Positions 2,763-61,658 of a stretch of DNA of 64,000 bases are shown in pieces (the first letter of the stretch is position 1; each line of letters begins with the position of its first letter). The translations under genes were made by a program, and so were the position numbers. Below the pieces are notes generated by a model. The model was not told the DNA's origin, did no database searches, and saw only the letters and a list, made by a program, of their open reading frames with translations. This DNA is from Chiloscyllium plagiosum. Its lineage: Eukaryota. Where the stretch lies: assembly GCF_004010195.1 (NCBI RefSeq), contig NC_057753.1, positions 4,143,656 through 4,207,655 of the forward strand. Reading direction: 5' to 3'.

Positions 2763-3052
2763 TTAATCTAGCAATGATGGTGGACGTGTCTTTAAAAAGA
2801 TGTTTTCTATCTAGATATGTCACATACTGTCTTCTTACTATGGAGGCAACGGATCTTTTGGTCCTGGTCACTGCTCTTATAGCAAGTTGAATTGCAGTGA
2901 TTTCTTTCCAGGTAAGTTTTTATACCACATCAATATGCAGTGTTCGCAATTCCTTAAATTTTGCAGCCATTGACATTTCTCTTTGTTTAACCGTCGATTT
3001 CTCTTTTGACAGATTTGGGAGCATATGCTGCCAAACACTGAAATTTTGATAT
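2763..3052 (+). pseudogene. Truncated GPR139-like pseudogene fragment (TM1-TM3 part of exon 2)
   Basis: Manual translation: NLAMMVDVSLKRCFLSRYVTYCLLTMEATDLLVLVTALIAS*IAV...ICSVRNSLNFAAIDISLCLTVDFSFDRFGSICCQTLKF*Y. Two in-frame stops, and the acceptor reads ttgtaa instead of ttgcag. Not in the ORF track. Confidence 0.8.
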
Positions 3053-4659
3053 CTTAGTGGCATGTGCATGTTATGTTGAAGGGCCTATTCCCATGTTGTA
3101 AGTCTGTATGACTCTCTAATTCTAGAAATGATTCATAGTGTTTCCCCTTATTTAAAAAAAAAACTGTGCACTAAATCTTTAGGACGTCAGGAGAAGTGTG
3201 GAAATAACCAAAAGGAACATTGTCTTAAATATGACAATATCATGAGAATTCAACAGCAGATGAAACAATGGTTCTATCATTACAAGATACAGACTGACAG
3301 GTAATTTATTTAGAATAGTATTACTCATAATACAATTGAATTGAATTGAATTGCCACAGTGATTACAAATTACAATTTATTTGTACTAATATTGCCATTA
3401 ACACAGTCAGTAAAAATTGCAAAAATGTGTACGCATTAAACGGAACACATCACAATCTCAAAGTGGAGCAGTATGTCCCACTGATTAGGATAGAAAATAT
3501 TTGTGAAATGGTTCAGCATTTTCCTTAAAACTGGAAAATTTATACAGCTGAAAAAATAACTCTGTGGTTTAAACTAGTACCATTTTCTCTGGAAGACTGA
3601 CGGCTGCACACACCAGATAGTGAATGCCAAATAGCAGACCTCCTGCATTTTATTCATTTCTGACTGATGTTCTGAGCACTTGCCAAGGAACATCGAAACT
3701 TAATTACATTCAAAAATGGCTACACATGCATATCAGTCTCCGGGGACGTAATTGCTTAGCTTAATTTAATTTTTCCTTCATTAACATTGTTGCAAGTACC
3801 AGATGATACATTTGCTGCTTGGCTAGCGTTTTTGACTGAATGGGATTGAATGTTTTTTACATCGGTCAGACAATAATCTAAAGTGATAAACCCAGAGGTT
3901 AAATGATGATTAGTTTCATTCATTTATATCATATGAAAAACAACCGATTACTGCCTGAACGCTCAGGCAGTTCGTATCATTCACCTCGTGACTGTTCTAA
4001 GAACAACAAAGGTTTTGAGGAAAATTTGGCAAGTCCTATTACTGTTCTGCCTTGAGGTTGACTATTCAAGTACTATGCGAATCGGTCAAGAACGAGTCAG
4101 TAAAATCTAAGTCATACGGATTTGTTTAAAATGCAATCAGTGTAACTCACTTCATGTCCTTTGATGTAGTTTCACTACAATGAAATTTCATATAGCAAGA
4201 TTCAGGTTCAATGTAGCACACCTATAATCAATTTGGTAAAAAGCGATTCATCATGGTAAATTCAGGGATAGCCTTTTCAGAGCTATTAACATTAAAGTTA
4301 TTGTGGACTTAAATTGATCAGCATAGTTATACCTACTTGGCATACCATTGGCTCAACGAAGCTACATGCAGATTTGACATGTGCAGTTCTGTCAACATTC
4401 CCACATGAAATTTGTTTTATTTCAAGTCACATCTCTTGCATTCAGTGTTGACAATCACAAAGTGATAGCCTCCGTCCTATGCAGGGCTAGTTCTACATAC
4501 ATTCCTGAATGGACAAAATTTGAATCAGCATGCTTGATTTCTATTTGCGAAGGCCAGATCAACACGAACGCTCCTGCAACATTCTGTGTGAGGTTCGAGG
4601 TGCTCTGATGTAAAATACAAAATGTTGAAACGTCAGAACGGCCCTCTTGCTGCCTGGCA

Positions 4660-7305: not shown

Positions 7306-7919
7306 TTGTTAATTGTCGAACTGGGAGTTTCCAAACCTTCTTTTCAAATATTGACTCGGCTAAATCACAGGCAAACTAATTGTGCATGCTGCTCAAGCAA
7401 TTACAGAAATAGGCAATGATGATCAGCATGTCTGGCAGGACTGTGGTAAGAAAACAGAATGCATTTCGTTCCTCTGAATAAGGATGTTTTGAGCATGTTA
7501 TTTGTCGAAATGTCCAAAATGAATTATTTTAGACTAATGACTGTATCTGTAAAGCAAACTCATGGCAGAGTCAGTTTCAGCACATTTTATTACCTTTTTT
7601 TCTAAACCTAGTTTAATGATCAATTTTCACCTTAGCTTAGCTGTTGTTTGTGTTGTAGATTCTTTACTACAGTGCAGGTGGAACACATTATCTTGCCATC
7701 TGTTCTGTGAACTGAATCATTTTATGTTGTTGTACCATTCAGCTGGTTATATTTTGAAATCTTAATAACTATGTTAAACTATTTTTGTTAAAAAAAGTTG
7801 CCTGAAACATACAAAAAATTTGCAAATTCAGATAAGTTTGCAATGCAATAAAGTTCGTAAGAACCATTTGATTTTTTTCAAGGAGTCGAATGACGTGTGT
7901 ACTCTCTCTACCCATTGGC

Positions 7920-8828
7920 TAACGTGTCCGTGATCATGCTCCGCTCTCGAAGAAAATGTGGATTTTCTGGGCGCATCATTTACTATCTGATGTCGATGGC
8001 AGTGACAGATTTCTTGATCATGGTCATGACTGTAATATTAAAACGAATTCCCATTCAGTTTCCTGTCTATTACACCAATGTCCAGCTTCCGTGCTGTGTT
8101 AAATATCATTTCCATCACAGTTCGGCCTGCTTATCAGCTGTCATCACATTTCATCGATTTGTGACTATTTCCTGTCAGAAGCTGAAAAAATGGTATTGTA
8201 ACCGGAAAATAGTTCTTCGGGTGATAGGAATCGTGATTGCACTTATCTGCGCGAAAAAATATTTTCCGATTTTTTTCAATTCAAACTTAGGTACATAATT
8301 AATGACATACACGGGTCTTGCAGCATCCAATTATGATATTGTATATCACTGGTACGGATCACATACGACTGGACTGGATCTATGTTAAACCCTTTTCTCT
8401 CATTCATTCTGATTTTACTGTTCAATGTTCTGACTGTCAGACACATTCTGGTGGCCAAGAAAATTCGGAGAAGCCTGCGGACTCAGAGCAATGAAGGGAA
8501 TCAGAATGATTCAGCGACGGAGAAGTAGGAAAAAGAATCCATTATTTTACTGTTTGTCATATCGGGTAGTTTTATTCTATTCAATTTATTATGTTTTGCA
8601 ACAATGTCACATGTACAAATTGCAAGTATTGCTGATTCCTCAGGATCTAATGCTAGTTATTCCACATTTATTCTCCATCAAAGCGGATTTATGCTTCCAT
8701 TATTGAGCTCTTGAATTGACCCGTTTATTTATGCTGGGACACAGAAGGAATTCAGAGCCGAGTTAAAAAAAAAACGGCTGAACTATCCCTTCAACCGATT
8801 GGTTAGTATATTTCATAAGACAAATTAA
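7920..8828 (+). pseudogene. GPR139-like pseudogene, full-length exon 2 with frameshifts
   Basis: Colinear with exon 2 of copies A and B (KCGFSGRIIYYLMSMAVTDFLI; FHRFVTISCQKLK; ccgtttatttatgctgggacacag). It has a deletion after TM2, frameshifts, a lost acceptor AG and no recognisable exon 1. Confidence 0.88.
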
Positions 8829-12110: not shown

Positions 12111-12734
12111 GTGGATGTGGCCGATGTTTTACTGCATTGAGACTGATAAACCGTGCTCATGTCCATCATCTTACTGCAGATTTACTTGCCACTAGCAGAA
12201 ATCTCCTTCTGAATTAGATATTTCAGTTTGATTTTTAAAGCCAAGGTAATAAATATCCACAGATAAATTTCTGCCAACCATTTTCTATTTATCGAGTTTT
12301 GAATGTGTTGTGCTGGTCCAACAAATTTCCGTTTCACTGCATACAAGCAGCTGCGGTTTAACATCCACGGAAACCATCTTGCTTCACTACGAACTGTGAA
12401 AAAAGGGCCACAACTTTTCCAGGAACTTGTAAGAAAAATTACTAAATATGCCCGAAGTTTGAAATGGAAACTGAAATTGCTGAAGCAACTCCACAGTTCT
12501 GGAATCTTCTGTGGAGAGAGAAGCAGTTTCAATATTTCGAGACCAATGCATCTCATGTGGAAAAGTTCTGAAGGAACGTTTAAATAGATTCGAAAAAGTA
12601 ACTTTGCCTCATTTTCTAAAGGAGGTGAAAGTCAAATCACTGTCTGCAGTACCATCTATTTAGCATTACAAATGCACCGATATGTTGGTTGTTTCTGACT
12701 CCCACTCGTGATAGATTCAATACCGGTATTTTTG

Positions 12735-13065
12735 ATTATGGGAACAGGGTTTCACTGGTTTGCCAGTATTTACTGGCCATCCCTAGTTGCCCTTGAACTG
12801 TAAAACTTGCCATGCAAATTCAAAAACCAGACCAGATGAGGATAGCACATTTGATTCCCTGATAGACATTAATGTGTCTGATGGATTTTCCAATAATAGA
12901 CAATGGTGTTACATTCATCAATAGAAATTTAATTTTAGACTTTGTTTTGCTAACTGAATTCAAATTCCAGGAATACTGCCTTGGCTGTATTCGAATCCTA
13001 GTCGCCACAACGTTCTCTGAGTTTTTGAATAAATAGTTTAGTGATAATATAACCATGCCATTGCC
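12735..13065 (-). mobile_element. tRNA-derived SINE with L2-type 3' tail (SacSINE/Deu-like)
   Basis: Minus strand shows a head with box-B-like GATTCGAATAC followed by ggaatttgaattca, and a tail aagggcaactagggatggccagtaaatactggc. Confidence 0.7.
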
Positions 13066-14029
13066 TGCCCGAAACTTAAAAAAAATCTGTTTGTACCCAG
13101 GTGCCAGATATTTAGAATGTGTACTCAGACACAACATGGCACATCAGGACCGAGTGGCACCATGATGCTGTGTTGATTGCACGATTTGTTATGAGCCCTG
13201 GTATACGTTATGTAAATGGAGAACATTTCAATGGTAGGGAATCTGAGGTAGAAACAATGTTGGCTGGAAACGAGAAAAATTTAGGTTTTTACATTGGTGA
13301 CAATTTTTTTTAATATCAGGACGTGTGAACACATTAGAGGAAAACGTCGTAAAGCAACAGATTTTGAAATCGCAGTACCTGGGTTTTGGGAAAGTAATAA
13401 CACGGTAGGCCTTTGAAAGGGTGGGATAGAGGGAAGATTGAATGACAAAATAACTCATGCAGCAAGCACAAGGGAACTGGTAATCATTTACACTCACAAA
13501 AATGTTTGAAGACACACAGTTTGAATATCTGTACAATGTGAGTTTTACTCCTTGCAGACCTGTTAATTACGTCCAATATTTTTTTGAATTTGTTCGTTAG
13601 AGTTTCTCTCATACTCATTACTTTGCTTTTGGTTTTTTTCTACCTAATCACAAGTTCATATTTGTGGAATATCAATTGCATTTGCATTTTTTTCGCACCG
13701 GGTGCTGGGTTTCTCTCTGCTTTGCTGTTTCCTTTCATTTGTTTTAAGTTACTTCCTTGCATTTTGTTGAAATTCTCCGAAATGTGTTTAGCAGTTTGGT
13801 CTCTGTCTCTAACTCATTCTTTTTGAATCGAACTGAAATACCATTTCCTTTCATGAACCATTTATTAGGAGGTTATTGTATGAGTGTTAAACATGCAAAC
13901 ATAGATAAAAGATTGGTTGATTGGCAACATTTTAAACAAATGCTTTTACTTGCCTTTTTTCAGATTGGCAGTAGTTGCTGATCGTGGTCCTACAGAGGTC
14001 AGTGCTGGGCATTCAAATTTCTACAATTT

Positions 14030-15425
14030 ACAATTAAAGTTTGCATCAATTTCAGGTGAGGGAAACGAAGATATCAAGGTTACGTTGGCTGAGGAAATAA
14101 AGGTAGGCAGGAAAGCATCGTGCATAAAATGACATAACAAGAATGCAGACCGCAATAAATAGGCTAAATGAATGTGAAAAGTTCTGGATGACGGTAAATA
14201 ATGTGAGAAAATGTGAAAATTTTCATTTGTTTCGGAAGAATGGAAAACAATTAATACTTAATCAGACAAGGAAAGACAAGAATAAGATCTACGTGTTCTT
14301 TTTGACAAGTCACAAACATTTTTAGTAAGCAGAGCAGTGTGTAATCAGGAATACTCATCATATATTAGATTTCCGGAGGAATTGAACATTAATGTTTTGA
14401 TACCACGCTTCAGTGATACCTGGAATTGTTGATACAGCAACTCGAAGACAGCACACAGTTGTCCTCTGTTGTTGAACGAAAGACATAAATGATTTACAGA
14501 CATTTCAGATGAAGGTTACTGGGCCTGAAAATGTCTTCAACTGAGGAAGTATTGGACCTCACATGTTTGTTTTCAATGGACTCTGCCTACTTAGTAAATG
14601 TGTAGATGATACTAAGGTCGGTGGAGCTGTGGATAGTTCTGAAGGATGTTACATGTTACAGAGGGACATAGGTAAGCTGCAGAGCTGGACTGAGAGGTGG
14701 TAAATGGAGTTTCATACGGAGAAGTGTGAGGTGATTCGCTTTAGACGGAGCAAAAGGAATAAAAAGTACTGGTCTCATGTTAAGACTCCTCGTAGTATGG
14801 ATGTACAGAGTGACCTTCGTGTCCATGTGCATCGATCCTTGAAAGTTGCACGCACAGTTTGATTGGGTTGTTAAGAAGACATATGGTGTGTTAGCTTTTA
14901 ATAGTAGCGGGATTGAGTTTCGAAGCCACGGGGTCGTGCTGTGGCTGTACAAAACCTCTGGTGCAGCCGAGCTTGGAGTATTGTGTACAGTTCTGGCCAG
15001 CACATTATTGGAAGGATGTGGAAGCTATGGAAAGGGTTGAGAGGAGATTTACTAGGATGCTGCTTGGTATGGAGAGAAGGTCTTTGGCGGAAAGGCTGAG
15101 GGACTAGAAACTGTTGTCATTAGAGAGAAGGTTCAGAGGTGAATTAATTGAGATATAATAGACAATCAGAGGGTAAGACAGGGTGTACAGTGAGAGTCTT
15201 TCTCATCGGATGGTGATGGCATCGGACAGATGTCAGAAGTCGTTTCTTTACACATAGAGTATTAGGGGCGTGGAACACACTGCTTGCAATAGTAGTCGGC
15301 TCGACAACTTTAAGGGCTTTTAAATGATCGTTAGATAAACATATGGATGAAAATGGAATAGCCTAAGATAAAGGGGTTCCACACGTCGGTGCAACATCGC
15401 TGTAATTTTCTCTGTTCTATGTTCC
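14030..15425 (+). mobile_element. Two CR1/HER1 LINE 3' fragments (old 14030-14570; younger 14590-15425)
   Basis: DDTKVGGAVDS...PSLEYCVQFWPAHYWKDVEAMERVERRFTRML, with a ttctatgtt tail at ~15415. Confidence 0.88.
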
Positions 15426-15581
15426 GCTCCGAATGACTGAGCTGTAGAGTCTCCGGCTTCTGCTGGTTAGAGTTGTGAACGATGCTCTATTTGGATCATA
15501 GAATATCGTCCATGTAATTGATAGGTTGCCACTGAGATATAGTTTGAACTACTCAAGGACTGAAAACATTGCCATTATACC

Positions 15582-16249
15582 ATATCCCGGCAACATTGGC
15601 GATAATTTACGACTGAGACTAGAAAAAAAAGTTTAACTTAAAAAAGCTTTGGGAATGTGTATCCCGGAATGTTGTGCATCAACCATCTTTGAATACAATT
15701 GTCAACACGACACTTATATATTGATGCCTCGGGAAATGGAAAGACAAGAAGAGCAAGGCAGGGTCATCAATTTAAATCTTCATATCAAGTGTGATGCTAA
15801 TCTTAGCAGAGAATGCCATCAGGTCTTAAGGTATATTTATTATCTTATTGCGAGCTTATATTTTTTTCTTCTGCTTTCAAAGCACTTGTGCAAATCACAC
15901 CTTGTGATTCCCTCTATATCCCGGCATCATTGGCGATAATTTACGACTGAGACTAGAAAAAAACGTTTAACTTAAAGAAGCTTTGGGAATGTGTATCCCG
16001 GAATGTTGTGCATCAACCATCTTTGAATACAATTGTCAACACGACACTTATATATTGATGCCTCGGGAAATGGAAAGACAAGAAGAGCAAGGCAGGGTCA
16101 TCAATTTAAATCTTCATATCAAGTGTGATGCTAATCTTAGCAGAGAATGCCATCAGGTCTTAAGGTATATTTATTATCTTATTGCGAGCTTATATTTTTT
16201 TCTTCTGCTTTCAAAGCACTTGTGCAAATCACACCTTGTGATTCCCTCT
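15582..16249 (+). repeat. Near-perfect 334-bp tandem duplication (15582-15915, 15916-16249)
   Basis: Two adjacent copies with only a few mismatches, giving duplicated ORFs at 15649 and 15983. Duplication copy B has a single copy (~56812-57150). Confidence 0.95.
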
Positions 16250-17308
16250 CAGCCACCCTTCCTCGACCTTGAAATCGAACTGTTGACAAATGTCTTAGGC
16301 CTATGGCACCATGTAGCCCCTCAATGAATTTGTGGTCTCCACAGCTGTGAACTCTTAATTCCTCATCTTTTTCTTCATCTTTGTATCTTTATCCGCGTGT
16401 CTTGCTTGCATAGTGTATTCTTGTTGCTATCTCCCATATTTTTTTCCTTCAGTTGGACACTAACGTTAGGCTTCTTAACTTATTTTGCAATTTTCCTTTT
16501 AGATTTGAGAATGTCATCTGTTGCTTTCCCAAACCCAACTTGCGAACAATTTGAATGACTGTTTATTTTGTTTTCTGACATCATAAGTTCAATTATCAGA
16601 AGGTCTACGAAAGATGTTTTGAATCGGACAATACACAGGCCAAAGAGCCTTCCAGATTTGCACTTGAGGCTGCAGAAACGCTCATCTCCTCATCTGAATA
16701 CCATTGTAGCTCTTCCAAACTTTCTTTTCCAGCCGCTAACATCTGTGATGTTAGGCTATTTGTGTTATTGATTATGCATCCGATAGTTTATTGGTTGACT
16801 TTTCTTCACAAATGATATATGACTTGCATTGCTGTTGAGATCAGAGTTTCTGCATTGGGGGCGGGGGTGGCATCTTCTGCAATATGGCCGACCCCTTGTT
16901 TTTAACTGTGTCGTGATAATTATTCTCTTTCACAGTCTCTATCCATGTTGCTGTACCTTATCGTGCCTCTATCTCTATCTTTCTGTCTTTCTGACATTCC
17001 ACAAAAGTCCATTTACCTCCCTTTCGATCCCAGAGAGGAATGGCAAAGACAATAAGTAATGTTCAGTTTCCAAGGTCCAAAGATAACACTTTTTGTATTA
17101 ACCTTTGGAGACTTCTCAGATTCCATGAGGGAGACAAATTAAAAACAAGTAACTCGGCAACAGCTGCACTGGTCAACATTTTTAGCACCAGCTTTAATTA
17201 AATTAGTGTACTAAACAATCTAATTGCCTCTCTAGATTCAGTCGTAAGGTATAATAATGAGAATGTTTACATTGAATTGGAGAAAGTGCTCAGAACTTCT
17301 GATGAAAA

Positions 17309-20300
17309 ATGCATAGTATTGTAAGAGGTTTGGTGTTTTCCATTTACTATCCGGTCATTGCTGCTGTCGGAGTTCCAGGTAATGTATTGCTGGTACTTTG
17401 CACTTTCTTGATTCACTGTTGTTCTCCCTCAACAAACGACTTTTGCTCATCACGTTTCTTCAATTTACATCACTTCTGATGGGGTCTTTCTTTCGATTCG
17501 CCAGTATACTCTTTTCGCTAAAAATTGCATATTTTGCTCCTTTTCACATTATTATCACTTCCAACGACATAATTTCAAGATTTTATCATTACAAATTGTT
17601 TGCTTTTCTGGCGTAATTTGAAGGTACCAATGGTATGATTAGTCACATTTCAAATTGTTATTTCTTTTTTCTATCTACATAGTTTCTGCTCATGATAGTA
17701 TACAATCTTCTTCTTTATCTTTGTAAGTTAATACTGCCTTCTTTTGACGTGCATCATTCCCTCGCTTCAGTTGTGCAATTCATACAATATGCATTTAACA
17801 TCTCATGATTGCGTTTGTTATTTCTATTGTTACTGGGATAGTCTTAACATGACGTTATCAGATCTTGCTGGTGAACGACTAAAATGTTTTGATGAAATGC
17901 GTTTCTGTTTTTTTGCACTCAATGATCATTGCAGAAATAATCCACATCGTTAGCTCAAATCTCAAATTGCGATTATTGTCGAAAGTTAGAACTATTTTAC
18001 GATTGACTCTGACAGTGATATAATAATTCACAAATAACAGCTGAACGAATTTAACCATACAAAATTTCCCAAAATAATGTTAATGAATGGATTTTTGAAA
18101 CATCATGAATCACACCGAACTCATGAAATATACATCAACAAAATCATACTTGCCCTTTAATTGATGATTGTAATTTGCCACGACCTGATACAGCACGGTG
18201 TTTCTATTTTCAATTTCTAAATTTGGCTAAGTTATCTTGGATCTTTACATCAATATATAACTGATCGCTATTCCGATCAGCTTTTAACATGCAGACATGT
18301 CCCAGAATGAACCCATCTTCACGACATTGTTCGCATTAACTGAATCAGTATATTCGGTGCAAAGCCACACGTACAAGGACAAAGCTCTTGGTTTGATTGC
18401 CCAAACTGGCATATGTGGTTTTTTTCCCGACGAGATATATCAGCAGGGGGGCATTGCAGCCTTTCAGGAGAGGTAGCCAATTGGCATCGCCACATTCGAA
18501 TTTCAGTATTTTTGATTGACAATGAAAGCTTGATTGTTGTGATGCTGATGCTCGTATAACAAGGTTATGTTATCCTTGGCCGTTTTGTCAGAGATGTCAT
18601 ACATGCAGCGATTCTGAAACGTTTGGCTTCGATGTGTTTTATGTCCAATTTGATTATAGCTAACAGATACTGCCTCAGGTAAAACCTTTTCTGTTTACAT
18701 TATAAAAGAATCTTACACAATGAAATGGGAGTGCCCAGTCCTCCCAGCTCAGCATTTCTAGTTTGGTTTGGTTTTGGCAGTCTTTCTATTCATTGAAAGC
18801 AGTCAGATCGTGTTTTGAAACTGCTGGAGCCAAAGAACCATATCCATGCTGATACAGTCTTTCTGACAAGTCTCCTCTAAAAATCAGTGTTTGATTGTGC
18901 CTTTTGTGCCAAGGGGAGTTCATGGAGATTGTTGTAAGTATTTAGAACAGTATCATTAAGCTAGGATAGTCTGTTGGGTTTTCGGAGAGTGTATGTTATT
19001 CTGCATTGTGTTATCTTTTGTTTGTGTTTCATTCGGTAACCATGTCATTAAATTCTGTTTTGTTTAAAACTACGTGGTTTAACTAACTGCATCTCCCCTG
19101 GACGACCCGTGTTACACCTGCTTAAAACAAACAGAAAAGCGAGGGTCTGATGTATTTTCTTGAAATGTTTTGAGGGATTCTGGCCAATGTTTGGTCCATA
19201 ACGTTGCCATTTTGCGAACTGAGATTTATCAATGCCTCATTTCAAGCATTGGCTCAGCTAAACCAGAGGCAAACTAACTGTGCATAGTGCTCAAAATTTA
19301 ACAGAAATAGCAATTGAAAGTCGGCACGTCGAGCATATCTGTGGGAGGAAAACAGAGTTACATTTTTCAGACTGGTGTGCGTGCTGTTCCTCTAGGTTAG
19401 GGTATCTTATGCATGTTGTTTGAAGAATTGTCCATAACGAATCATTTTAGCCGAAAAATGTGTAAAAACTAACTCGTGGCAGAGTCATTTACAACACATT
19501 TTCTTACCTGTTCTTTTTGATCCAGTCCAATGATCAATATACACTTTTACTTAGCTGCTGTTTGTCTTGTAGATTCGTTACTAAAGTGCCTGGTGGAATA
19601 ACGTTTTCTTGCCCTCTGTTCCGTGACACTGAACCACTTTATGTTGTTGCAACATTCAGCTGCCTATATTCTGAAATTGTTATATGTTAAACTAAGGGTA
19701 TGTTTAAAAACATTGCCTGAAACATCGAAAATAATTTGCAAATTCGGACAAAGTTGTCATGCTGTAAAGTTCGTAAGATTCATTTCAAATGAATGATTCC
19801 TTTCAAGAAGCCGAATGACGTGTGTTCTCTTTCTATGCATTGCAGCTAATTTTGCCGTAATTGTGATACTTTCCCGAAGCAAATGCGGACTTTCTGCATG
19901 TGTAATTTACTACCTGATGGTGATGGCAGTGACAGACCTCTTGATCATGATGACGGCTGTAATATTAAACCGAATTGCTGGGATTTATTTCCCATCCAGT
20001 TTCCTGTCTATTACCCCGGTGTGCAGTTTCCGTTCTGCCTTAAATATCGCTTCCTTCGACTGTTCTGCCTGGTTAACAGTTGCCTTCACCTTTGAGCGAT
20101 TTGTGGCTATTTCCTGTCAGAAGCTGAAAATAAGATATTGTAACGAGAAAATGGCACGTTGGGTGATAGGAATCGTGATCGTACTGACCTGCATGAAAAA
20201 TGTTATCAAATATTTCCAATTCGAACCTACGTACATAATTAATGACGTACCCTGGTTCTGCAGCATAAAGTTATCGTACTATACATCACTGGCATGGATC

Positions 20301-20765: not shown

Positions 20766-21499
20766 AGTCTACCATGCTATATGTCTTTCTTCAACATTGA
20801 ATTTTCTTCTCCATGCAACTTTAGAAACTTGGCTTGAAATTGATTGATAAAATGAGAACTTAAGTATGTGCCAACTAGTTTGCAAGTTTAATTTTTGTAA
20901 ATTATTCTCAGTAATTTCCAGCTCTGTACCAAGTGTTGACTTAGACCGTGTACATTTCTGTCAGCCAGAAGAGGGTAATATCGCTTCGGAGGTCGAGAAT
21001 TAGCAAGTGGTCAATACTGGGATATATTATTATTTATAGTTCCAAGTATGTGAAGTGTTCAGAAAGAGGAAATGTGTCTATTCCTTTTCCCATTCCTTCT
21101 TTTTTACGACCAGTCCCTGGCTACAATATTGCCTAAATCGACAGAGTATCTTATGTGGACGTGCATTTACTGAAGTTTCATTCTTTCCCTGACTTTATTC
21201 AATTCACTGCAATATTTTCTTTTGTAATGAAGTGGATGAGTTCAGATACTGCCATTAGCCTAAGCGTGAGCTTCACCAGTTGCGCTATGCTCATTCTAAT
21301 GCGCGTCCATATAATTGTTCCTGTCTCTGCTCGATGTTTTGTTGCATCAGTGGTCTGCTTGTTAGCGCTTATATTGGAATTTCATGAGCATCGTTTTGGT
21401 TCCCAACTCCCCTGCACTGGGGATGCTATGTTGCACTGACTGGAGATATGACTACTCTGGTTCTTGAGCTGAAATCAGTGAAAAGCGATCACAGGTTTA

Positions 21500-38540: not shown

Positions 38541-38569
38541 TCAAAGAAAGTTGAGCACAATGATGAGGA

Positions 38570-42910: not shown

Positions 42911-42913
42911 AGT

Positions 42914-48541: not shown

Positions 48542-49410
48542 TTATTTTGGGTTTGAGTATTTAAACAACGAAATAATCAGATTCAAACAGTACTGCATCC
48601 CATTCATTCACTCTTTTCTAACTTTGTTCTGGATACCTGCATAAATGAACGGCTTAATGCAGGAGTTCAAGAGTTGAAGCATATAACCGCTTTCCTCCAG
48701 AATAACATTGGATTCGGTGGAAGTTGAAGCAGTGAATAACTAATACTTGCAACTGGAAGATAGAGGAAGTTAGAAGAATTAACGGGATAAAACTTCCCCA
48801 GACACAGAAAAGTAAAACTACGGACTTTTTCCTCTTCTCCATTTCTGGGTCAATCTGATCCTGTGTATTCCTATGCGTCCAAAGCCGTCTGCGGGCATTA
48901 GCAGCTGCTAGAATATGCCTGACGGTTAAAACATTGAGTAACAAAATAATAATGAACGGAAGACAAGCAGATAAAATCCATATAGGTGACGAATAATAGA
49001 TTATTTTGGTGTTGCAGTACCAAAGCACAGGTTAACATGTTAAGTACACAGGGAATTTCGAGCACAGCTCAGAGCACAGACAAAGCCTACAATAATAACT
49101 GCTGTTTTCCTGGTGCAATATTTGTTTTTCAGCCCTGGGCAACAAATTGGTGTAAATTGATATATAGTAAAAGCGACAGAAACCCATATAGAAGAATCCC
49201 TGATAACATAAATTAGAGCAAAACTGAAAGCAAGTATCGGAGTGATGCAAAGGAAACTCAGTGACAAGTGCCAACCTAAAAGACGATTTATTATTACACC
49301 AGTAACCATGACCAGGAGATTTGTTACTGCCAGAGATATCATGTAGAGAGCAATACATCTGGAGAGACCATATCGTTTCCAAGACTAGATCAGAATCACT
49401 GCCAAATCTG
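48542..49410 (-). pseudogene. Divergent GPR139-like pseudogene, exon 2, inverted relative to the other copies
   Basis: Minus-strand acceptor ttttgcag at 49411-49418, then ADLAVILI*SWKRYGLSRCIALYMISLAVTNLL...DSSIWVSVAFTIYQF...CLPFIIILLLNVLTVRHILAAANARRRL...DPEMEKRKKSVVLLF...PFIYAG. Contains stops and frameshifts. Confidence 0.88.
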
Positions 49411-50519
49411 CTGCAAAATATAAATGTAGAGAGTGAATAAGCGTCAGAAGGAAATAAATGTTTAGGAAATGTTGGAAACAAAGCTGATGAAACAATTGCA
49501 GTTTTTTTCAAGTTTGGCAACGTTTGCATCCTATTGGAGGCAATCACATCATAGCACACTTTGAACTCTCAATTTTGGTCATGAATTTGGCTGAAATCTT
49601 CCCACTAAATCCAACAATGAACTTTGATATTTAAACTTCTTGTCTGAGAGAGGGAAAATAGAATGAAATATGGCCTCATTTGCTGCATAAATATCGTCTT
49701 TGACAAGAAAAGACTGCTATACTTTGAATGTTATAGTGGCGAGCAACTAACATTAAAGAACAGAAATAAACAAGCAATGTCACGAATACAGGCATTTAAT
49801 ATCAGCCATAGAGACCAAAAATGTAAACATTCTTTCTGTCACAGAAGGAATGGACTTTGTATTGAAAATCAAAGAGAACCATTACTCTTTCTGCTGTCTG
49901 TACCAACAGTACTAGGTAAACCCATAGCTACCAATTCCATGTCTTTTCCGTAAAAAAAGTTTGTTCCACACCTTTAGTCCTATAACTTCTATTTATCTTG
50001 TTAACATTTATGCCACGTGGATGAATAAATTTTTCTGGTGTTGCTAATTAAGATCTTGAGTGGCAGATTAACCATAAAAATTCTTGATTGCCTTTTGACT
50101 GTGTGTAGGAATCAAGCAGGAAGAAAGTGCTGAGATAGTTAATTATCAAGGCAGACGATATTTTCCTTAGAAAGTGCAATCAAATAGAGGGCAGTAAAGA
50201 GATGGAGAGAGAAAAATAAAAATGGACACTACTCAAGAAACCATGGCTAGACAGAAATATGCATAAGAAAAGTCATGGACAAAAACAAATGATACTTTCG
50301 AGGACAGAGATAGCTGGAGACGGGCATGGTGAAATAATTAAACCTTCACCATTATATCCCTTTGTTCCTCATTGGCGGTAAAGAACGATTATAGACATAA
50401 AGCACGTTCATAATGAAGACGTCTGCAAATACTTAAAAGCTAATAAAATTCACGTTGAACTGCAATTACTGTTCCATTATAATGGGCACGTCAGAATAGA
50501 ATTGTGGAATCTTTCACAA

Positions 50520-53169: not shown

Positions 53170-53924
53170 TGTTAGGTTTTTTTCCTAACATCCGAATTCA
53201 GTGGAGGGCACACTGTATCACAGACATTTTAGCACTTCTTTAGTTTTGAACACATACATTGTTTTAAAAAGAGACGGTTTGTTTTGTGGATACTTGAGTT
53301 GGTCTTGATGCTGCCGATGTCTTAATGCTTTGACGCTGACAACCCGTGCTCTTATCCGTCATCTTATTACAGATTGACTGGCCACGAGCAGAAATTTCCT
53401 TCTGAATTAGATATTTCAGCTGGATTTATAAAGCTTAGATAACAAATATCCTGGGATAAATTTCTGTCAAACATTTTCTATTTATTGAGTTTTGAATATG
53501 TTGTGCTGGAAAACCAAATTGCCGTTTCACTGCGTCCAAGCAACTGCGGTTTAACATCCACGGAAGTCATCACTGCGAACTGTGAAAAAAAGGGCGACAA
53601 CTTGTCCAGGAATTTTTTTAAAAAAATATTAAGTATGCCAGAAGTTTGAACTGTGAATTGAAATTGCTGGAGCAACTCAACAATTCTGGAATCTTCTGCG
53701 AAGAGAGAAGCAGTTTTAATATTTCGAGACCAATGCATCTCATTTGGAAAGGTTCTGAAAGAACGTTTAAATAGATTCGAAAAAATAACTTTGCCTCATT
53801 TTCTAAAGGTGGTGAAAGTCTACTCACTGTCTGCAGTACCATCTATTTTGCATTACAGATGCAACAATATGTTGGCTGTTTCTGACTCCCACTCGTGATA
53901 GATTCAATACCGGTCTTTTTATTT

Positions 53925-54252
53925 ATTGGAACTGGGTCTCACTGGCTGGCCAGTATTTATTGGCCATCCCTAGTTGCCCTCGAACTGTAAAACTTGCCAT
54001 GAAAATTCAAAATCCAGACCAAATGAAGATAGCAAATTTCATTCCCTGATGAACATTAATGAGTCTGATGGCTTTTCCAATAATAGACATTAGTGTTACA
54101 TTCATCAATAGAAATTTAATTCGACACTTGCTTTGCTGACTGAATTCAAATTCTAGGAATACTGCCTTGGCTGTATTCGAATCCTAGTTGCCACAACGTT
54201 CTCTGAGTTGTTGAATAAATAGTTTAGTGATAACGCAACCGTGTCATTGCCT
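53925..54252 (-). mobile_element. Duplicate of the SINE at 12735-13065
   Basis: Colinear within the segmental duplication. Confidence 0.7.
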
Positions 54253-55239
54253 GCCCGAAACTTAAAAAAAATCTGTTTGTACCCAGGTGCCAGATATTTA
54301 GAATGTGTACTCAGACACAACATGACACATCAGGACCGAGTGACACCATGATGCTATGTTGATTGCACGATTTGTTATGAGCCCTGGGATACATTATTTA
54401 AATGGAGAACTTTTCAATGGCTGGGAATCTGAGGTAGAAACAATGTTGGCTGGAAACGAGAAAAAAATAGGTTTTTACATTAGATGCAATTTTCTTTATA
54501 TCAGATCTGTGAAAACATCAGAGGAAAACGTCGGAAAGCAACAGATTTTGAAATCGCAGCTCCTGGGTTTGGGGAAAGTAAAAAAATGGTAGGCCTTTGG
54601 TAGGGTGGGATAGAGGGAAGTTTGATTGACAAAATATGTCATGTAGCAAGCACAAGGGAACTGGTAATCAGTTACACTCGCAAAAATGTATGAAGACACA
54701 CAAGGTGAATATCTGTACAATGTGAGTTTTACTCCTTACACATCTATTAATTATGTCCAACATATTTTTGAATTTTTTCGTTCTAGTTTCTCTCATCCTC
54801 ATTACTTTGCTTTGGGATTTTTTTCTCCCTAATCACGACTTCATGTTTGTGAAATACCAATCGTATTTGCATTTTTATGCACCGGGTGCTGGGTTTCTCT
54901 CCGCTTTGCTGTTTCCTTTCATTTATTTAAAGTTACTTTCTTGCATTTTGTTCAAAATTTTCCGAAATATGTTTAGCAGTTTGTCGACCTACCACATGAA
55001 TATTCTCTCTCTCCAACTCATTCTTTTTTATTCGAAACTAAAATATCATTTTATTTCTCAGAACCATTTATTAGGAGGTTATTGTATGAGTGTTAAACAT
55101 GCAAACATAGATAAAAAAATTGGTTGATTGGGAACATTTTAACCAAATGCATATACTTGCCTTTTTTCAGATTGGCAGCATTTGATGCATGTCCGACAGA
55201 GGTCAGTGCTGGGCATTCAAGCTTCTACAATTTACAATT

Positions 55240-56640
55240 AAAATTTGCATCAATGTCAGATGAGGGAAACGAAGATATCAAGGTTACATTTGCTGAGGAA
55301 ATAAAGGTAGGTAGGAATGTATTGTGCATAAAATGACATAAAAAGAATGCAGGCCGAAATTAATAGGCTGAATGAATGTGTAAAGTTGGGGCAGACGATG
55401 GATAATGTGAGAACATTTTCAGTTGATTGGGAAGAATAGAAAACAATTCTTACTTTATCAGACAGTGACTCAGTAAGACAAGAATAACATCTACGTGTTC
55501 CCTTTGACAAGTCACAAACATTTTTAGTAAGCAGATACAGTGAGTAATCAGGAACATTCATAATATATTAGATTTCCGGAGGACTTGAACATTAATGTTT
55601 TGATACCACGCTTCAGTGATATCTGGAATTGTTGATACAGCATCTCGAAGACAGCACACAGTTGTCCTCTGTTGCTGAAAGAAAAACATAAATGATTTAC
55701 AGACATTTCAGACGAAGGTTACTGGGCCTGAAAATGTCTTCAGTTGAGGAATTATTGGCCTGCACATGCTTGTTTTCAATGGACTCTGCCTACTTAGTAA
55801 ATGTGTAGATGGCACTAAGGTCGGTGGAGCTGTGGATAGTTCTGAAGGATGTTATGTGTTACAGGGGGACATAGATAAGCTGCAGAGCTGGGCTGAGAGG
55901 TGGTAAATGGAGTTTCATACGGAAATATGTGAGGTGATTCGCTTTGGAAGAAGCAAAAGGAATAAAGAGTACTGGTCGCATGTTAAGATTCTTCATAGTA
56001 TAGACGCACAGAGAGATCTCCGTGTCCATGTGCATCGATTCTTGAAAGTTGCACGCACAGTTTGATTTGGCTGTTAAGAATGCATATGGTATGTTTGCTT
56101 TTAATCGTAGCAGGATTGAATTTCGAAGCCAAGAGGCCGTGCTGCAGCAGTACAAATTTGTGGTGCAGCTGCGCTAAAAGTATTGCGTACAGTTCTGGCC
56201 ACCACATTATAGGAAGAATGTGGAAGCTATAGAGAGGGTTCAGAGGAGATTTACTAGGATGCTGCTTGGTATGGAGGGAAGGCCTTTTGAGGAAAGGCTG
56301 AGGGACGAGAAACTGTTGTCATTAGAGAGAAGAAGGTTCAGAGGTGAATTAATTGAGATATAATAGATAATCAGAAGGTTAGACAGGGTGTACAGTGAGA
56401 TTCATTCTCTTCAGATGGTGATGATTTGCACGAGATGATATAGCTTTAAATTGCGGGGTGATATCGGACAGATGTCAGAGGTCCTTTCTTTACACAGAGT
56501 AATAGGGGCGTGGTACGGTCTGCTTGCAATAGTAGTCGGCTCAACAACTTTAAGGGCATTTAAATGATCATTGGATAAACATATGGATGAAAATGGAACA
56601 GTGTAAGATAAAGGGGTTCCACAGGTTGGTGCCACATCTC
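55240..56640 (+). mobile_element. CR1/HER1 fragments, duplicate of 14030-15425
   Basis: Colinear within the segmental duplication. Confidence 0.88.
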
Positions 56641-58235
56641 TAATGATCCATGTTGCACTACGAACGACTGTGCTATAGAGTCTCCGGTTACTGCTGGTTA
56701 GAGTTGTGAACGATGCTTATTTGGATCATAGAATATCGTACATGTAATTGATAGATTGTCACTGAGATATAGATTGAACTACTCAAGGACTGAAAACATT
56801 GCCATTATACCGTATCCCGGCATCATTGGCGATAGTTTACGATTGGGACTAGAAAAAAAATGTTTAGCTTAAATGGTTGTGAAGACTGGGAATGTCTATC
56901 CCGGAATATTGTGCATCAACAATCTTTGAATACAATTGTTAATACGATAGTCATATTTTGATGCCTCGGGAAACGAGATGACAAGGAGAGCAAGGTAGGA
57001 TTGTCAATTTAATTCCTAATATCAAGTATGGTGCTAATCTTAGCACAAAGTGCCATCAGGCCCTAAGGTCTATTTATTATCTTGTTGTGAGCTTATATTT
57101 TTTCTTCTGCTTTCAATGTACTTATTCAAATCACACCTCGTGATTCCCTCTTAGATCATTCTTCCCCAACCTTGAAATCGAACTGTTGACAAAGGTCTTT
57201 GGACTATGGCACAATGGAGTAACCTAATGAATTTGTGGTCTCCACAGCTGTGAACTCTTAATTCCTCAGCTTTTTCTTCATTTTGTTCTTTATCCACGTG
57301 TCCTTGCTTGTATAGTATATTCTTGTTGCTATCTCCCATATTTTCCCTTCAGCTGGAAAGTAGCATTAGGCTCCTTAACTTATTTTGTAATTTTCCTTTA
57401 GGAATTGATACTGTCATCTGTTGCTTTCCCAAACCCAACATGCCAATAATTTGAACCGACTGTTTAATTTGTTTTCTGAGATCAAATGTTCAATTATCAC
57501 AAGGTCTGCGAAACATGTTTTGAATTCGACAATACACAGGCCAAAGAGCCTTCCAGATTTGCACTTGAGGCTGCAGAAACGCTCATCTCCTCATCTGAAT
57601 ACCATTGTAGCTCTTCCAAACGTTCCCTATCAGCCTCTAGAATCTGTGATGCTAGGCTATTTGTGGTATTGATTATACATCCGATGGTTGATTGCTTGAC
57701 CTTTCTTCACAAATGATATATGACTTGCATTGCTGTTGAGATCAGAATGATCTGCAGTGGGGGGCGGGGTGAAGCATCTTCTACAACATGGCTGCCCCTT
57801 TGTTTTTGACCGAGTGGAGATAATTATTCTCTTTCTCAGTCGCTATCCATTTTGCTGTACCTTAACGTGTCTCTATCTGTATATTTTTGTCTTTCTGACA
57901 TTCAACAAAAATCCATTCACCTCCCTTTCGACCACCGAGAGGAATAGCAGAGACAATAAGTTGCGCTCAGTTTCCAAGGTCCAGAGATGACACTTTTTGT
58001 ATTTCACTTTCGAGAGTGCTCAGTTTCCATGACGGCAATAAAATAAAAACAACTAACCTCGTCAAACATGAAGATAACCCAGCCACAGCTGCACTGGTCA
58101 ATATTTTTAGCACCAGCTTTAATTATATCAGTGTACTAAACAATCTAATTGCCTCCCTAGAGTCAGTCGTAAGGTACAATAATGAGAATTCTTACGTTGA
58201 ATTGGGGAAAGCGCTCAGAACCTCTGATGAAAGAA

Positions 58236-61200
58236 ATGCATAGTATTGTAACCGGTTTGGTGTTTTCCATTTACTACCCGGTCATTGCTACTATCGGCAT
58301 TCCAGGTAATTTATTGCTGGTACATTGCACGTTCTTGAATCATTGCTTTTCTCCATCAAAAAACACTTTTGAGACTCACGCTTCTTCAATTTACATCACT
58401 TTTGATGGGTTTTTTCTTTCGATTCGCCAGTATAATATTTTCGCTAAAAATTGCATATTTTGCTCCTTTTCACATTATTATCACTTCCAACGATATAATT
58501 TCAAGATTTTATCATTTCAAATTGTTTGCTTTTCTGGCGTAATTTGAAGGCACCAATGGTATGATTAGTCACATTTCAAATTGTTATTTCTTTATTCTAT
58601 CTACATAGTTTCTGCTCATGATAGTACACAATCTTCTTCTTTATCTTTGTAAGTTAATACTGCCTTCTTTTGACTTGCGGCATTCCCTCGCTTCAGTTGT
58701 GCAATTCATGTAATATGCATTTAACATCTCATGATTGCTTTTGTTATTTCCATTGTTACTGGGATAGTCTTAACATGATATCATCAGATCTTGCTAGTGA
58801 ACGACTAAAATGTTTTGATGAAATGCGTTTCTGTTTTTTTGCACTCAATGATCATTGCAGAAATAATCCACACCGTTAGCTCAAATCTCAAATTGCGATT
58901 ATTGTCGAAAGTTAGAACTATTTTACGATTGACTCTGACAGTGATAGAATAATTCACAAATAACAGCTGAACGAATTTAACCATACAAAATTTCCCAATA
59001 TAATGTTAATGAATGGATTTTTGAAGCATCATGATTCACACCGAACTCATGAAACATACATCAACAAAATCACACTTACCCTTTAATTGAAGATTGTAAT
59101 TTGCCACGACCTGATACAGCACGGAATTCTATTTCCAATTCCTGTGTTTGGCTAAGTTATCTTGGATATCCACATCAATATATAACTGGTCGTTATTCTG
59201 ATCAGCTTTTGACATCCAGATATGTCCCAAACTGAACCCATCTTCACGACATTGTCCACATTAACCGAATCAGTATATTCGGTGGAAAGCCACACGTACA
59301 AGGACAAAACCCTTGGTTTGATTATCCAAACTGGCATAGGTGTATTTTTTTCGACAAGGTATATCAGCAATGGGGCATTGCAGCCTTTCAAGAGAGATGG
59401 CCAAGTGAGGTATCGTCATATTCGAATTTCAGTATTTTTGATTGGTAATGAAACCTGTTGCGATGCTGATGCTCGTTTAAAAAGGTCACGTTATCCTTGG
59501 CCGTTTTTTCAGAGACGTCATAAATGCAGCGATTCTGAAATATTTGGCTTTCGATGTGTTTTAAGTCCAATTTGATTATCGCTAACAGATACTGCCTCAG
59601 GCAAAACCTTTTCTGTTTACATAATAAAGAACCTTATACAGTGAAATGGGAGTGCCCAGTCCTCCCAGCTCAGCATTTCTAGTTTGGTTTGGTTTTGGCA
59701 GTCTTTCTATTCACGGAAAGCAATCAAATCGTGTTTTGAAACTGCTGGAACCAAAGAACCATATCCATGCTAATACAGTCTCTCTGACAAGTCTCCTCTA
59801 AAAATCAGTGTTTGGCTTTACCTTTTGTGCTAAGAGGAATTAATGGAGATTGTTGCAAATATTTAGAACAGTATCATTAAGCTGGGATAGCCTGTTGGGT
59901 TTTCGGAGAGGGTACGTTATTCTGTATTGTGTTATCTTTTGTTTGTGTTTCATTCGGTAACCATGTCAATAAATTCTGTTTTGTTTAAAACTACGTGGTT
60001 TAACTAACTGCATTTCCCCTGGACGATCCGTGTTACACCTGCTTAAAACAACCAGAAAAGCGATGGTCTGATGTATTTTCTTGAAATGTTTAGAGGGATT
60101 TTGGCCAATGTTTGGTCCATAACATTGCCATTTTGCGAACTAAGATTTATCAATGCCTCATTTCAAGCGCTGGCTCAGCTAAACCACAGGCAAACTAACT
60201 GTGCATAGTGCTCAAAAACTAACAGGAATAGCAAATGAAAGTCGGCACGTCGAGTAGATCTGTGGGAGGGAAATAGGTGTGCGTGCTGTTCCTCTAGGTT
60301 AGGATGTCTTGATCATGTTGTCAGTAGAATTGTCCATAATGAATAGTTGTAGACGAAAAATGCATAGGAACTAACTCGTGGCAGAGTAATTTATACACAT
60401 TTTCTTACCTGTTCTTTTTGATCCAGTCCAATGATCAAAACACGCCTTTGCTTCGCTGCTGTTTGCCTTGTAGATTCGTTATTAAAGTGCCTGGTGGAAT
60501 AAAGATTTCTTGCCCTCTGTTCAGTGACACTGAATTATTTTATGGTGTTGCAACATTCAGCTGTCAATATCCTGAAAATGTTCTGAATTTGTTAAACTAA
60601 AAACACTTCCTGAAACATAGAAAATAATTTGAAAACTCAGACAAAGTTGTCATTTTGTAAAGTTCATAAGAGTCATTTCAAATGATTGATTTCTTTCAAG
60701 AAACCGAATGACGTGTGTTCTCTTTCTATGCATTGCAGCTAATTTTGCCGTAATTGTGATACTTTCCCGAAGAAAATGCGGACTTTCTGCATGTGTAATT
60801 TACTACCTGATGGCGATGGCAGTGACAGACCTCTTGATCATGGTGACGGCCGTATTATTAAACCGAATTGCTGGGATTTATTTCCCATCAAGTTTCCTGT
60901 CTATTACCCCAGTGTGCAGCTTCCGTTATGCCTTAAATATCGCTTCCTTCGACTGCTCTGCCTGGTTAACAGTTGCCTTCACTTTTGAGCGATTTGTGGC
61001 TATTTCCTGTCAGAAGTTGAAAATAAGGTATTGTAACGAGAAAATGGCAGGTTGGGTAATAGGAATCGTGATCGTGCTGACCTGCATGATAAATCTTATC
61101 AAATATTTTCAATTCGAACCTACGTACATAATTTCTGACATACCCTGGTTCTGCAGCATAAAGTTATCGTACTATACATCACTGGCATGGATCACCTACG

Positions 61201-61658
61201 ACTGGATTCGCTGCATTTTAAACCCTTTCCTACCATTCATTCTGATTTTACTGCTCAATGTTCTGACTATCAGACACATTCTAGCGGCCAATAGAATTCG
61301 GAGAAGATTGCGGACTCAGAGTAATGAAGGGAATCAGAATGATTCAGTGATGGAGAAGCGGAATAAGTCCATCATTTTACTGTTTGCTATCTCGGGCAAT
61401 TTTCTACTTCTAAATTTGTTGTATTTTGCAACAACCTCCTATGTCCGAATTGCAACAGTTCCTTATTCCTCAGGATCCAATGCTACTAATTCCACATTTA
61501 TTCTCCAACAAGGCGGATTTATGCTTCTGGTATTGAGCTCTTGCATGAACCCATTTATTTATGCTGGGACACAGAAGAAATTCAGAGCTGAGTTAAAAAC
61601 AGGGCTGAAATATCCTTTCAACCAATTGGTTAGTATGTTTAATAAAACACATTTTTAA
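58236..61658 (+). CDS. Intact two-exon GPR139/GPR142-like class A GPCR, copy B (exon 1 58236-58305, optional in-frame ATG at 58227; exon 2 60739-61658; 329 aa)
   Basis: Exon 1 reads MHSIVTGLVFSIYYPVIATIGIP + G|gtaatt. Acceptor cattgcag|CT at 60739. Same 7TM motifs as copy A, with 20 amino-acid differences counted by eye. Confidence 0.9.
59456..60124 (+). mobile_element. Solo LTR in the intron of GPCR copy B
   Basis: TGT...ggtccataaCA termini, with AATAAA at ~59968. Confidence 0.6.

Follow-up and report, generated by a model that had tools for sequence, protein, structure and literature searches.

A birth-and-death cluster of GPR139-branch receptors in a shark genome, from a large and possibly chemosensory family of cartilaginous fishes

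Five receptor copies of unequal age

The window, i.e., the whole 64-kb stretch of DNA analysed, contains five paralogues of a class A G protein-coupled receptor (GPCR): two intact two-exon genes of 329 aa, A and B, and three pseudogenes, one of them on the minus strand (Table 1). tblastn and six-frame HMM scans recover exactly five homologues of exon 2 in the window, which agrees with the two intact copies and three pseudogenes, in both orientations, reported by the first-pass annotation. The architecture that it had described for the intact copies, namely a 70-nt exon, a phase-1 intron, one large exon and a very short N-terminus, is likewise that of A and B. Their spliced ORFs have no internal stop, and the splicing is predicted from the sequence and from homologues; no spliced read of A was seen in shallow RNA runs of unstated tissue. 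RNA run X7 gave only repeat or paralogue pieces, and no RNA data set was listed for exon 2 of A, an outcome that carries no information on expression. The 'MH' N-terminus of A and B is found in 84 of the 120 closest proteins, and exon 1 of gene B is preceded by in-frame ATGs at 58227 and 58182. Within the window, no exon 1 was found for psi1, psi2 or psi3, Rfam gave no match, and no satellite array lies upstream of A or B, gene A having only a 334-bp two-copy duplication.

Table 1. Positions of the receptor copies and associated features in the window
Feature	Position	Strand	Description
psi1	2759..3052	+	TM1-TM3 alone, the 5' third of exon 2; 2 stops; old, truncated; HMM E 8e-27
LINE RT fragment	5821-6117		just upstream of psi2
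psi2	7918..8828	+	full-length exon 2; 14- and 1-nt deletions, 2-nt insertion, 3 stops
Segmental duplicate with gene A	12114..23171	+	~11 kb, 86-90% identity to 53307-63998
Gene A exon 1	17309..17378	+	70 nt, from the start codon through the GT donor; encodes the N-terminus plus the first half of TM1
Gene A intron	17379..19845	+	phase 1, 2467 nt, AG acceptor; high-copy repeats at ~18540-19355
Gene A exon 2	19846..20765	+	remainder of the 7TM receptor including stop
psi3	48560..49417	-	inverted; other subclade; five deletions, 2 stops
Segmental duplicate with gene B	53307..63998	+	reaches the window end
Gene B exon 1	58236..58305	+	70 nt, GT donor
Gene B intron	58306..60738	+	phase 1, 2433 nt, AG acceptor
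Gene B exon 2	60739..61658	+	

Both proteins match Pfam 7tm_1 (A, E 1.6e-17 and 64.3 bits; B, E 3.4e-18 and 66.5 bits; cut-off 30.5) and carry the class A marks N1.50, D2.50, the C3.25-ECL2 cysteine pair, D/E-R3.50, P5.50 and NPxxY. Two activation positions are changed in both, W6.48 to N and P6.50 to L, and these changes are unusual, N6.48 occurring in 4 of 120 relatives and P6.50 being absent. A predicted model of the receptor is helical and its Foldseek matches are all class A GPCRs, but its mean pLDDT is 55.8 and GPR139 comes at rank 15; owing to this low confidence and ranking, the AlphaFold model was left out of the family placement.

The copies differ clearly in age, as the first-pass annotation had held: nucleotide identity is 96% between A and B, 80% between psi2 and A, and ~60% for psi1 and psi3. 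In the tree, psi2 is the sister of A and B, while psi3 falls in another subclade; homology between psi2 and the intron of gene A starts at 6155. At least nine decayed LINE fragments bearing reverse transcriptase lie in the window. The family expands and decays by segmental duplication, in a process of birth and death. A and B have diverged as much at synonymous sites (dS 0.092) as in their introns (0.091), whereas dN is 0.029, and the resulting dN/dS of 0.31 (Fisher p=5e-4) shows that the two genes are under purifying selection. Their 20 differences affect 3 of 31 pocket positions, which is no excess. The reading of A and B as haplotype duplicates was ruled out, because introns and synonymous sites are 9% apart.

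Size, range and ancestry of the family

Of 2249 candidate protein clusters, 1498 match at E<=1e-5, and RefSeq labels the family 'probable GPR139'; the proteins are 90% cluster representatives and may include repaired gene models. Among the best 120 of the 1498, 119 are named shark proteins, from 12 species, and 71 come from Heterodontus; 99 clusters at 50% identity have E<=1e-30. The more divergent members reach further, since 25 of the 26 names looked up, among the 46 sequences used, are chondrichthyan (one is unnamed) and span sharks, four ray or skate genera and Callorhinchus. Deep subfamilies are common to sharks, rays and a chimaera. In the DNA run X1, the summed contig depth rises from ~20 in the flanking sequence to 12,000-13,400 in the middle of exon 2; it is not a copy number, but it indicates homologues in the hundreds, if not more. 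A and B thus belong to a very large chondrichthyan set, whose members, at the least many hundreds, are spread over sharks, rays and chimaeras. The first-pass annotation had suggested a shark family expanded within its lineage by birth and death; for cartilaginous fishes, the 1498 clusters at E<=1e-5, the tree and the pseudogenes bear this out, and neither a mere handful of copies nor simple GPR139 orthology, either of which would have spoken against it, applies. The exon-1 donor pattern was found in no stretch of metagenome contigs, and a further scan gave 19 loci, none of them from sharks, with 22-26% identity over long stretches or at most 59% over ~30-45 residues. No description of the family was found in the literature searched, a scope that takes in few subscription journals, nor any mention in 11 of the 12 supplementary files of PMC12361510 or 12 of the 24 of PMC8455134.

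The tree, a quick search with SH-aLRT supports and no bootstrap, separates the 69 family rows from all others by a single branch (SH-aLRT 92), adjoining single-copy amphibian and sturgeon genes (SH-aLRT 88); true GPR139 and GPR142 are not among its sequences. The closest bony-vertebrate relatives in this tree are two single-copy orphan genes, one from amphibians and sturgeon (P0241 clade) and one ranging from sharks to reptiles (P0227 clade), of which sharks retain their own orthologue. These orphans share ICL1, TM3, ICL3 and TM7 motifs with the family and are 27-28% identical to A, but in the match lists each species has roughly one such gene. They also have an invariant basic residue at 6.51 (R in 75/75, K in 24/24), which is R in only 5 of 120 close shark paralogues. 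Bony-vertebrate 'GPR139-like' orphans probably correspond, by description rather than by identifier, to the GPR210 set of Rinne et al. 2019 (PMC6504862), whose main text does not contain the word 'shark'.

Could A and B simply be GPR139 or GPR142 orthologues, or recent duplicates of them, that bind L-Trp and L-Phe? The RefSeq names suggest so, and a broad profile built from the family and its sister clades puts GPR139 first (132.3 vs 102 bits). However, the profile of the family itself scores GPR139 no better than the TRH receptor (51.4 vs 51.8 bits), a single-query search returns no PDB chain at E<=0.001 even though GPR139 is in the PDB, and in that search a coelacanth orphan protein reaches 112 bits, other vertebrate orphans also being far closer than GPR139. 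In A and B, the positions of the GPR139 agonist-contact residues F109, H187, W241, R244 and N271 (PMC5430874; PMC8807744), mapped by helix anchors and profile alignments, are occupied by I, R, N, Y and F. Simple orthology is therefore very improbable, and A and B are, on profile scores and contact residues, not GPR139 orthologues, as the first-pass annotation had anticipated. Its further suggestion of aromatic amino-acid ligands inherited from GPR139 is left unsupported, since all five contact residues differ. When the sister clades are included, no characterised receptor is nearer than GPR139, and profile comparison assigns the family to the GPR139/GPR142 branch. The shark subfamily resembles GPR139 (PDB 7vug, 9m42) in its TM1 and TM5 motifs and has N5.58 and a short N-terminus in common with it, yet it is only a remote match (51 bits), and it keeps C3.25 and the ECL2 cysteine where aligned GPR139 lacks C3.25. 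GPR139 is conserved and brain-expressed, whereas the shark family comprises many hundreds of variable paralogues.

Nematode srw genes form an expanded chemoreceptor family. PF10324 (Srw) matches occur on sister-clade proteins and on the Atlas look-alike clusters, which are FMRFamide-receptor-like, while on A and B Pfam returns 7tm_1 and no srw match. The srw, FMRFamide-receptor-like and sex-peptide-receptor-like expansions belong to the same broad branch as the shark family but, at ~25-29% identity, are independent of it.

Variable pockets over a conserved cytoplasmic face

Sequence entropy was compared between 31 pocket positions, which we take from generic numbering, and other helix positions, in sets whose sequences are not independent. 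The pocket/non-pocket ratio is 1.78 in the 120 close and 1.77 in the 46 divergent members of the family, against 0.77 in 75 GPR210-like proteins and 0.27 in 24 amphibian-clade orthologues; overall identity in these four sets is comparable, at 71, 46, 60 and 75%. Within single species, the ratio is 2.06 for 71 Heterodontus paralogues (p=8e-7) and 1.49 for 16 from Rhincodon. All four sets have R3.50 and N5.58 without exception, and in the shark family D2.50, N7.49, Y7.53 and the TM3-ECL2 cysteine pair hardly vary. A conserved cytoplasmic face is set against a hypervariable predicted pocket. The predicted pockets are 1.5-2.1 times as variable as other helix positions among shark paralogues, but as conserved as these or more so in the single-copy relatives, a contrast that points to a diversified ligand-sensing repertoire.

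A candidate chemosensory repertoire and its rivals

The reading that we prefer, and to which we give an even chance, is that A and B belong to a chemosensory repertoire for water-soluble cues, predicted to act in sensory cells such as olfactory neurons. The ancestral gene would have been a single-copy orphan on the GPR139 branch, as it still is in amphibians and sturgeon. Its conserved pocket, with the basic residue at 6.51, would have been lost, and the radiation would predate the split of chimaeras and elasmobranchs; each paralogue would then bind a different polar ligand, all would signal through a shared G protein, and expression would most likely lie in sensory cells, e.g., olfactory neurons. 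Tandem clusters, many pseudogenes, compact coding and a variable pocket are also traits of the OR, TAAR, V1R/ORA, V2R/OlfC and T2R families, and class A chemoreceptor families share the short N-terminus. The ancestry is separate, as 7tm_1 is the only Pfam match on A and B and their nearest kin are GPR139-branch orphans.

According to PMC10116579, the catshark has 34 V2R genes and, in each of the OR, TAAR and ORA families, 4-9 genes, numbers well below those of the family described here. Its olfactory neurons form a near-continuous monolayer, of which seven receptor probes label ~12.6 cells/mm in sum; many olfactory neurons may therefore lack an assigned receptor. On the opposing side, the same paper ascribes Go/TRPC2-positive neurons to V2Rs, at most 16 of the 34 having been probed. 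It is conceivable, though we hold it only tentatively, that the main olfactory family of cartilaginous fishes is an independent GPR139-branch recruit of hundreds to over a thousand genes. Jointly with this proposal, and just as tentatively, the recruits would be expressed sparsely in microvillous neurons left unexplained by V2Rs, and the shark repertoire would rank among the largest in fishes instead of among the smallest. Against the chemosensory reading stands a catshark 'brain & olfactory epithelium' library, for which PMC11979771 lists no GPCR among the top 50 genes; this is weak counterevidence, because any one gene of a repertoire yields few transcripts and the list has no V2R either. 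Three of the five local copies are dead, and A and B themselves show no excess of pocket differences and have N6.48 and no P6.50.

Hypervariable pockets and a birth-and-death history are likewise typical of GPCR families with immune or barrier roles, such as FPR, MRGPR and chemokine receptors, and the clusters and pseudogenes would be equally expected of a repertoire in leukocytes or in the epithelium of skin, gill or gut that senses microbial or damage-derived peptides or metabolites in the manner of formyl-peptide or Mas-related receptors. The charged pocket and the retained TM3-ECL2 disulfide recall peptide receptors, and the single-cell run X5, whose tissue is not given, holds 10 reads with 10 different starts from a divergent paralogue. 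Many hundreds of copies nevertheless exceed the mammalian FPR or MRGPR families, and the family's closest relatives sense nutrients or neural signals. According to PMC8455134, MAS1 and related receptors are missing from cartilaginous fishes, which may leave a niche of that type open; on balance, we regard an immune role as rather unlikely, if the strongest of the competing explanations.

It has also to be considered that LINE-rich segments passively duplicate the gene, leaving most copies silent or redundant and a few with a conserved job. The LINE fragments, the pseudogenes, duplication units of 11 kb or longer and the lack, in those shallow RNA runs, of any read that covers the first exon of A or its splice junction fit such drift. 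However, drift would not concentrate variation on pocket positions while the cytoplasmic face is conserved, and both the dN/dS between A and B and the deep subfamilies common to sharks, rays and a chimaera argue against it, so that we find it unlikely. About as improbable are receptors that act in brain, gonad or gut on ligands from within the body, such as neuropeptides and peptides of reproduction or the gut, diversified from the GPR139/sex-peptide/MIP receptor branch. Among solved structures, GPR139 gives the best match to the broad profile; it is expressed in the brain and has MIP and sex-peptide receptors as relatives (PMC12208981), and the Atlas look-alikes are FMRFamide-receptor-like; but fixed-ligand receptors keep their pockets, as the single-copy sister genes do, whereas the pocket strings of the Heterodontus paralogues differ in 71 of 71, in part through the 90% clustering.

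PMC10116579 describes a very small chemoreceptor repertoire in sharks despite large olfactory organs, and PMC8455134 a relative paucity of GPCRs. Many hundreds of class A receptors with diversified predicted pockets, gathered under one automatic name, contradict the claim of paucity whatever the tissue in which they act, and the paradox of shark smell becomes testable with existing multi-organ RNA-seq. If the family is immune, it would constitute an unrecognised innate sensor repertoire; if it is olfactory, vertebrates would have evolved a family of odorant receptors independently once more.

The cluster and its duplication history

The cluster is real: tblastn with the two long ORFs as queries and HMM scans of all six frames recovered exactly five large-exon homologues in the window, and the anatomy described in the first-pass annotation (two intact genes and three pseudogenes in both orientations, with a phase-1 intron) was correct wherever it could be checked. 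The intact class A GPCR genes A and B each combine a GT-AG phase-1 intron of ~2.4 kb with an open 329-codon frame. Exon 1 was undetectable within the window for all three pseudogenes, psi1, psi2 and psi3 (0/3).

Features of the window (window positions)
Feature	Position	Remarks
Gene A exon 1	17309-17378	
Gene A exon 2	19846-20765	
Gene B exon 1	58236-58305	
Gene B exon 2	60739-61658	
psi1	2759-3052	TM1-TM3 fragment, two stops
psi2	7918-8828	frameshifts and three stops
psi3	49417-48560	inverted; five deletions, two stops
Duplicated segment with A	12114-23171	
Duplicated segment with B	53307-63998	
Homeodomain-type site regions	17195-17260 (A), 58120-58185 (B)	window mean 1.1 per 400 bp
Upstream ATGs	17257-17311 (A), 58182-58238 (B)	
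Tandem duplication	15582-16249	334 bp
Assembly gap	25362-25861	500 N
Open stretch	1051-1902 (-)	284 codons
Decayed LINE reverse-transcriptase fragments	5821-6117, 14551-15339, 22663-23600, 32968-33261, 35930-36284, 41888-42913, 43800-45291, 55793-56600, 63468-63998	

A and B are carried by an 11-kb segmental duplication whose two copies share 86-90% identity. psi2 derives from an older duplication of this unit (75% identity across the intron, with more matches downstream) and is sister to A/B in a tree (support 100), while psi3 is placed in a different subclade. Synonymous divergence between A and B (dS 0.092) equals intron divergence (0.091), and dN is far lower (0.029; dN/dS 0.31, Fisher p=5e-4). 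A and B are therefore true paralogues that have been under purifying selection ever since their duplication; divergence at synonymous sites and introns rules out haplotypes. Both keep the core class A residues, with the exceptions W6.48 to N and P6.50 to L. The A and B proteins themselves were absent from the protein search results, in which the best match was 69% identical.

The assembly gap has near-duplicate sequence on both flanks and may conceal further copies. The tandem duplication (99% identity), found upstream of A only, is either recent or an assembly artefact. Several of the decayed LINE fragments border the duplication units. The open stretch has neither a Pfam match nor another copy within the window and resembles a degraded fragment of a retroelement.

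Size, range and relatives of the family

The exon-2 protein query matched 1498 of 2249 candidate clusters at E<=1e-5, and the best 120 of these 1498 comprised 119 named shark proteins from 12 species, as expected of the lineage-expanded family proposed earlier, and one unnamed; Heterodontus supplied 71 of them. An exhaustive search of 50% representatives gave 99 clusters at E<=1e-30. Among 46 divergent members used, 25 of the 26 with looked-up names come from chondrichthyans (among them Leucoraja, Rhinoraja, Hypanus, Narcine and the chimaera Callorhinchus), the other being unnamed. The Callorhinchus protein is nested within the family in the tree, which indicates that the radiation started before the chimaera-elasmobranch split. 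In the DNA sequencing run X1, summed contig depth, which is not copy number, goes from ~20 on the flanks to 12,000-13,400 over mid exon 2, with a maximum of about 44,000 at a single conserved motif; such depth is compatible with homologous segments, counting pseudogenes, that number from hundreds to a few thousand.

The family is apparently undescribed, though its members are listed in public annotation, and no description was found in the literature searched. In the main text of Mayeur et al. 2024, 'GPR' and '139' are absent, and none of the 50 top-ranking genes for brain and olfactory epithelium is a GPCR (PMC11979771). The whale shark genome paper describes GPCRs as relatively scarce in cartilaginous fishes (PMC8455134), and the main text of the bamboo shark genome paper leaves GPCRs unmentioned (PMC7677710). 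Another genome study reports that families of >100 copies were removed before expansion analysis (PMC12361510), a plausible route by which such a family went unnoticed.

A single protein query against the PDB returned no chain at E<=0.001. The close-family profile scored 51.4 bits for GPR139 versus 51.8 for the TRH receptor, while a wider profile including the sister clades put GPR139 clearly on top (132 versus 102 bits); the family thus sits on the GPR139 branch, yet distant from GPR139, which has itself been tied to MIP and sex-peptide receptors (PMC12208981). The agonist-relevant residues of GPR139, namely F109, H187, W241 and N271 (PMC5430874) and R244 (PMC8807744), correspond to I91, R181, N249, F284 and Y252 in A, with the same letters in B, so that all five are replaced. 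On these profile scores and residues A and B were rejected as GPR139, and the earlier view that they are not true orthologues stands.

Two genes, each present about once per species, are closer relatives than GPR139: one spans sharks, fishes, amphibians and reptiles, the other is found in amphibians and sturgeon. A tree of 94 rows with invertebrate proteins as its root (quick search, without bootstrap and without true GPR139 and GPR142) separates the 69 rows of the family from the rest at a single branch (SH-aLRT 92); the amphibian/sturgeon gene adjoins them (88) and the sharks-to-reptiles gene lies outside. The former is the best candidate for the ancestral state of the family. Rinne et al. 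2019 gave the name GPR210 to three sets from fishes and coelacanth that lie close to GPR139/142 (PMC6504862); these probably include both sister genes, matched by description, not identifier. The amphibian/sturgeon orphan (P0241, P0272, P0395-P0414) is mislabelled GPR139 and has an almost invariant pocket. The second orphan (P0227, P0277-P0394) is also mislabelled, and two of its models carry TMEM183A isoform names, which suggests a location beside or inside that gene.

Pocket variability and candidate functions

Entropy was compared between pocket and other helix positions, the pocket being 31 class A positions in generic numbering, mapped by helix anchors. The pocket/other ratio is 1.78 in 120 close relatives (p=2e-5; p=0.022 against extracellular-half non-pocket positions alone) and 1.77 in 46 divergent members, these being non-independent sequences, cluster representatives and possibly repaired gene models. 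Within one species it reaches 2.06 (71 Heterodontus paralogues) and 1.49 (16 Rhincodon), as against 0.77 (75 sequences, p=0.15) and 0.27 (24 sequences, p=6e-6) in the single-copy relatives, whose mean identity is comparable to that of the shark sets. Between A and B, 3/20 differences fall in the pocket, without excess. The sister genes keep a basic 6.51 (75/75 and 24/24, the latter being K6.51 of the amphibian gene), as R244 in GPR139, and F3.33 and N7.39 (24/24) and W6.48 (23/24) are retained in the amphibian gene as well; R6.51 occurs in just 5/120 close shark paralogues. Among the loops ICL1 and ICL2 are the most conserved, and variability is greatest in the N-terminus and ECL3. The close-subfamily pocket is rich in charge (R3.28 96/120, D3.37 102/120, K4.56 98/120, D5.39 108/120, E7.36 92/120), which suggests polar, water-soluble ligands. 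The low-confidence structure model adds a helical class A fold and nothing more.

In the simplest reading of these sequences, an ancestral orphan receptor with a fixed ligand would be the starting point; shark copies freed from that constraint would have diversified in ligand recognition while retaining one signalling output. The family, which belongs to no known chemoreceptor family, would most likely act as a diversified sensing repertoire. That this repertoire is chemosensory has about even prospects, and its deployment in olfactory neurons specifically is a more tentative proposal. Catshark has 4-9 genes per OR, TAAR or ORA family and 34 V2R genes, and its neurons form an almost continuous monolayer with probe densities totalling about 12.6 cells/mm, according to Syed et al. 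2023 (PMC10116579); many catshark neurons may lack an assigned receptor, and the authors there assign the neuron population to V2Rs.

A diversified repertoire serving immune or barrier sensing instead is unlikely. The family is large, old and selectively maintained, and genomic drift is an improbable account of it; internal peptide signalling has, if anything, slightly poorer prospects. With all five agonist-relevant residues replaced, a plain GPR139/GPR142 orthologue is very improbable.

Transcription and upstream regions

A lookup of exon 2 of A listed no RNA data set, which carries no weight as to expression. In X5, a single-cell run of unstated tissue and strand convention of which ~2% was sampled, 119 reads matched, 117 of them partially and mostly to intronic repeats; 0 of the 119 covered exon 1 or the splice junction of A. 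Ten reads with 10 starts match 20475-20509 and run on into sequence whose in-frame translation shows the ICL3 and TM6 motifs expected of a distant paralogue, which is at most a hint, given possible DNA carry-over, that some family member is transcribed.

Both A and B have four homeodomain-type TAAT(T/G)(A/G) sites in the 120 bp that precede exon 1, and two O/E-like sites occur in the A upstream region only. The arrangement is reminiscent of odorant-receptor promoters; the comparison is post hoc, and the two genes do not count as independent cases. Upstream of its start, B carries two ATGs in frame, which could lengthen the N-terminus by 3 or by 18 residues. The equivalent ATGs of A are thrown out of frame by a 2-nt deletion, creating an upstream ORF which overlaps with the main start and could, if those bases are transcribed, reduce translation of A.
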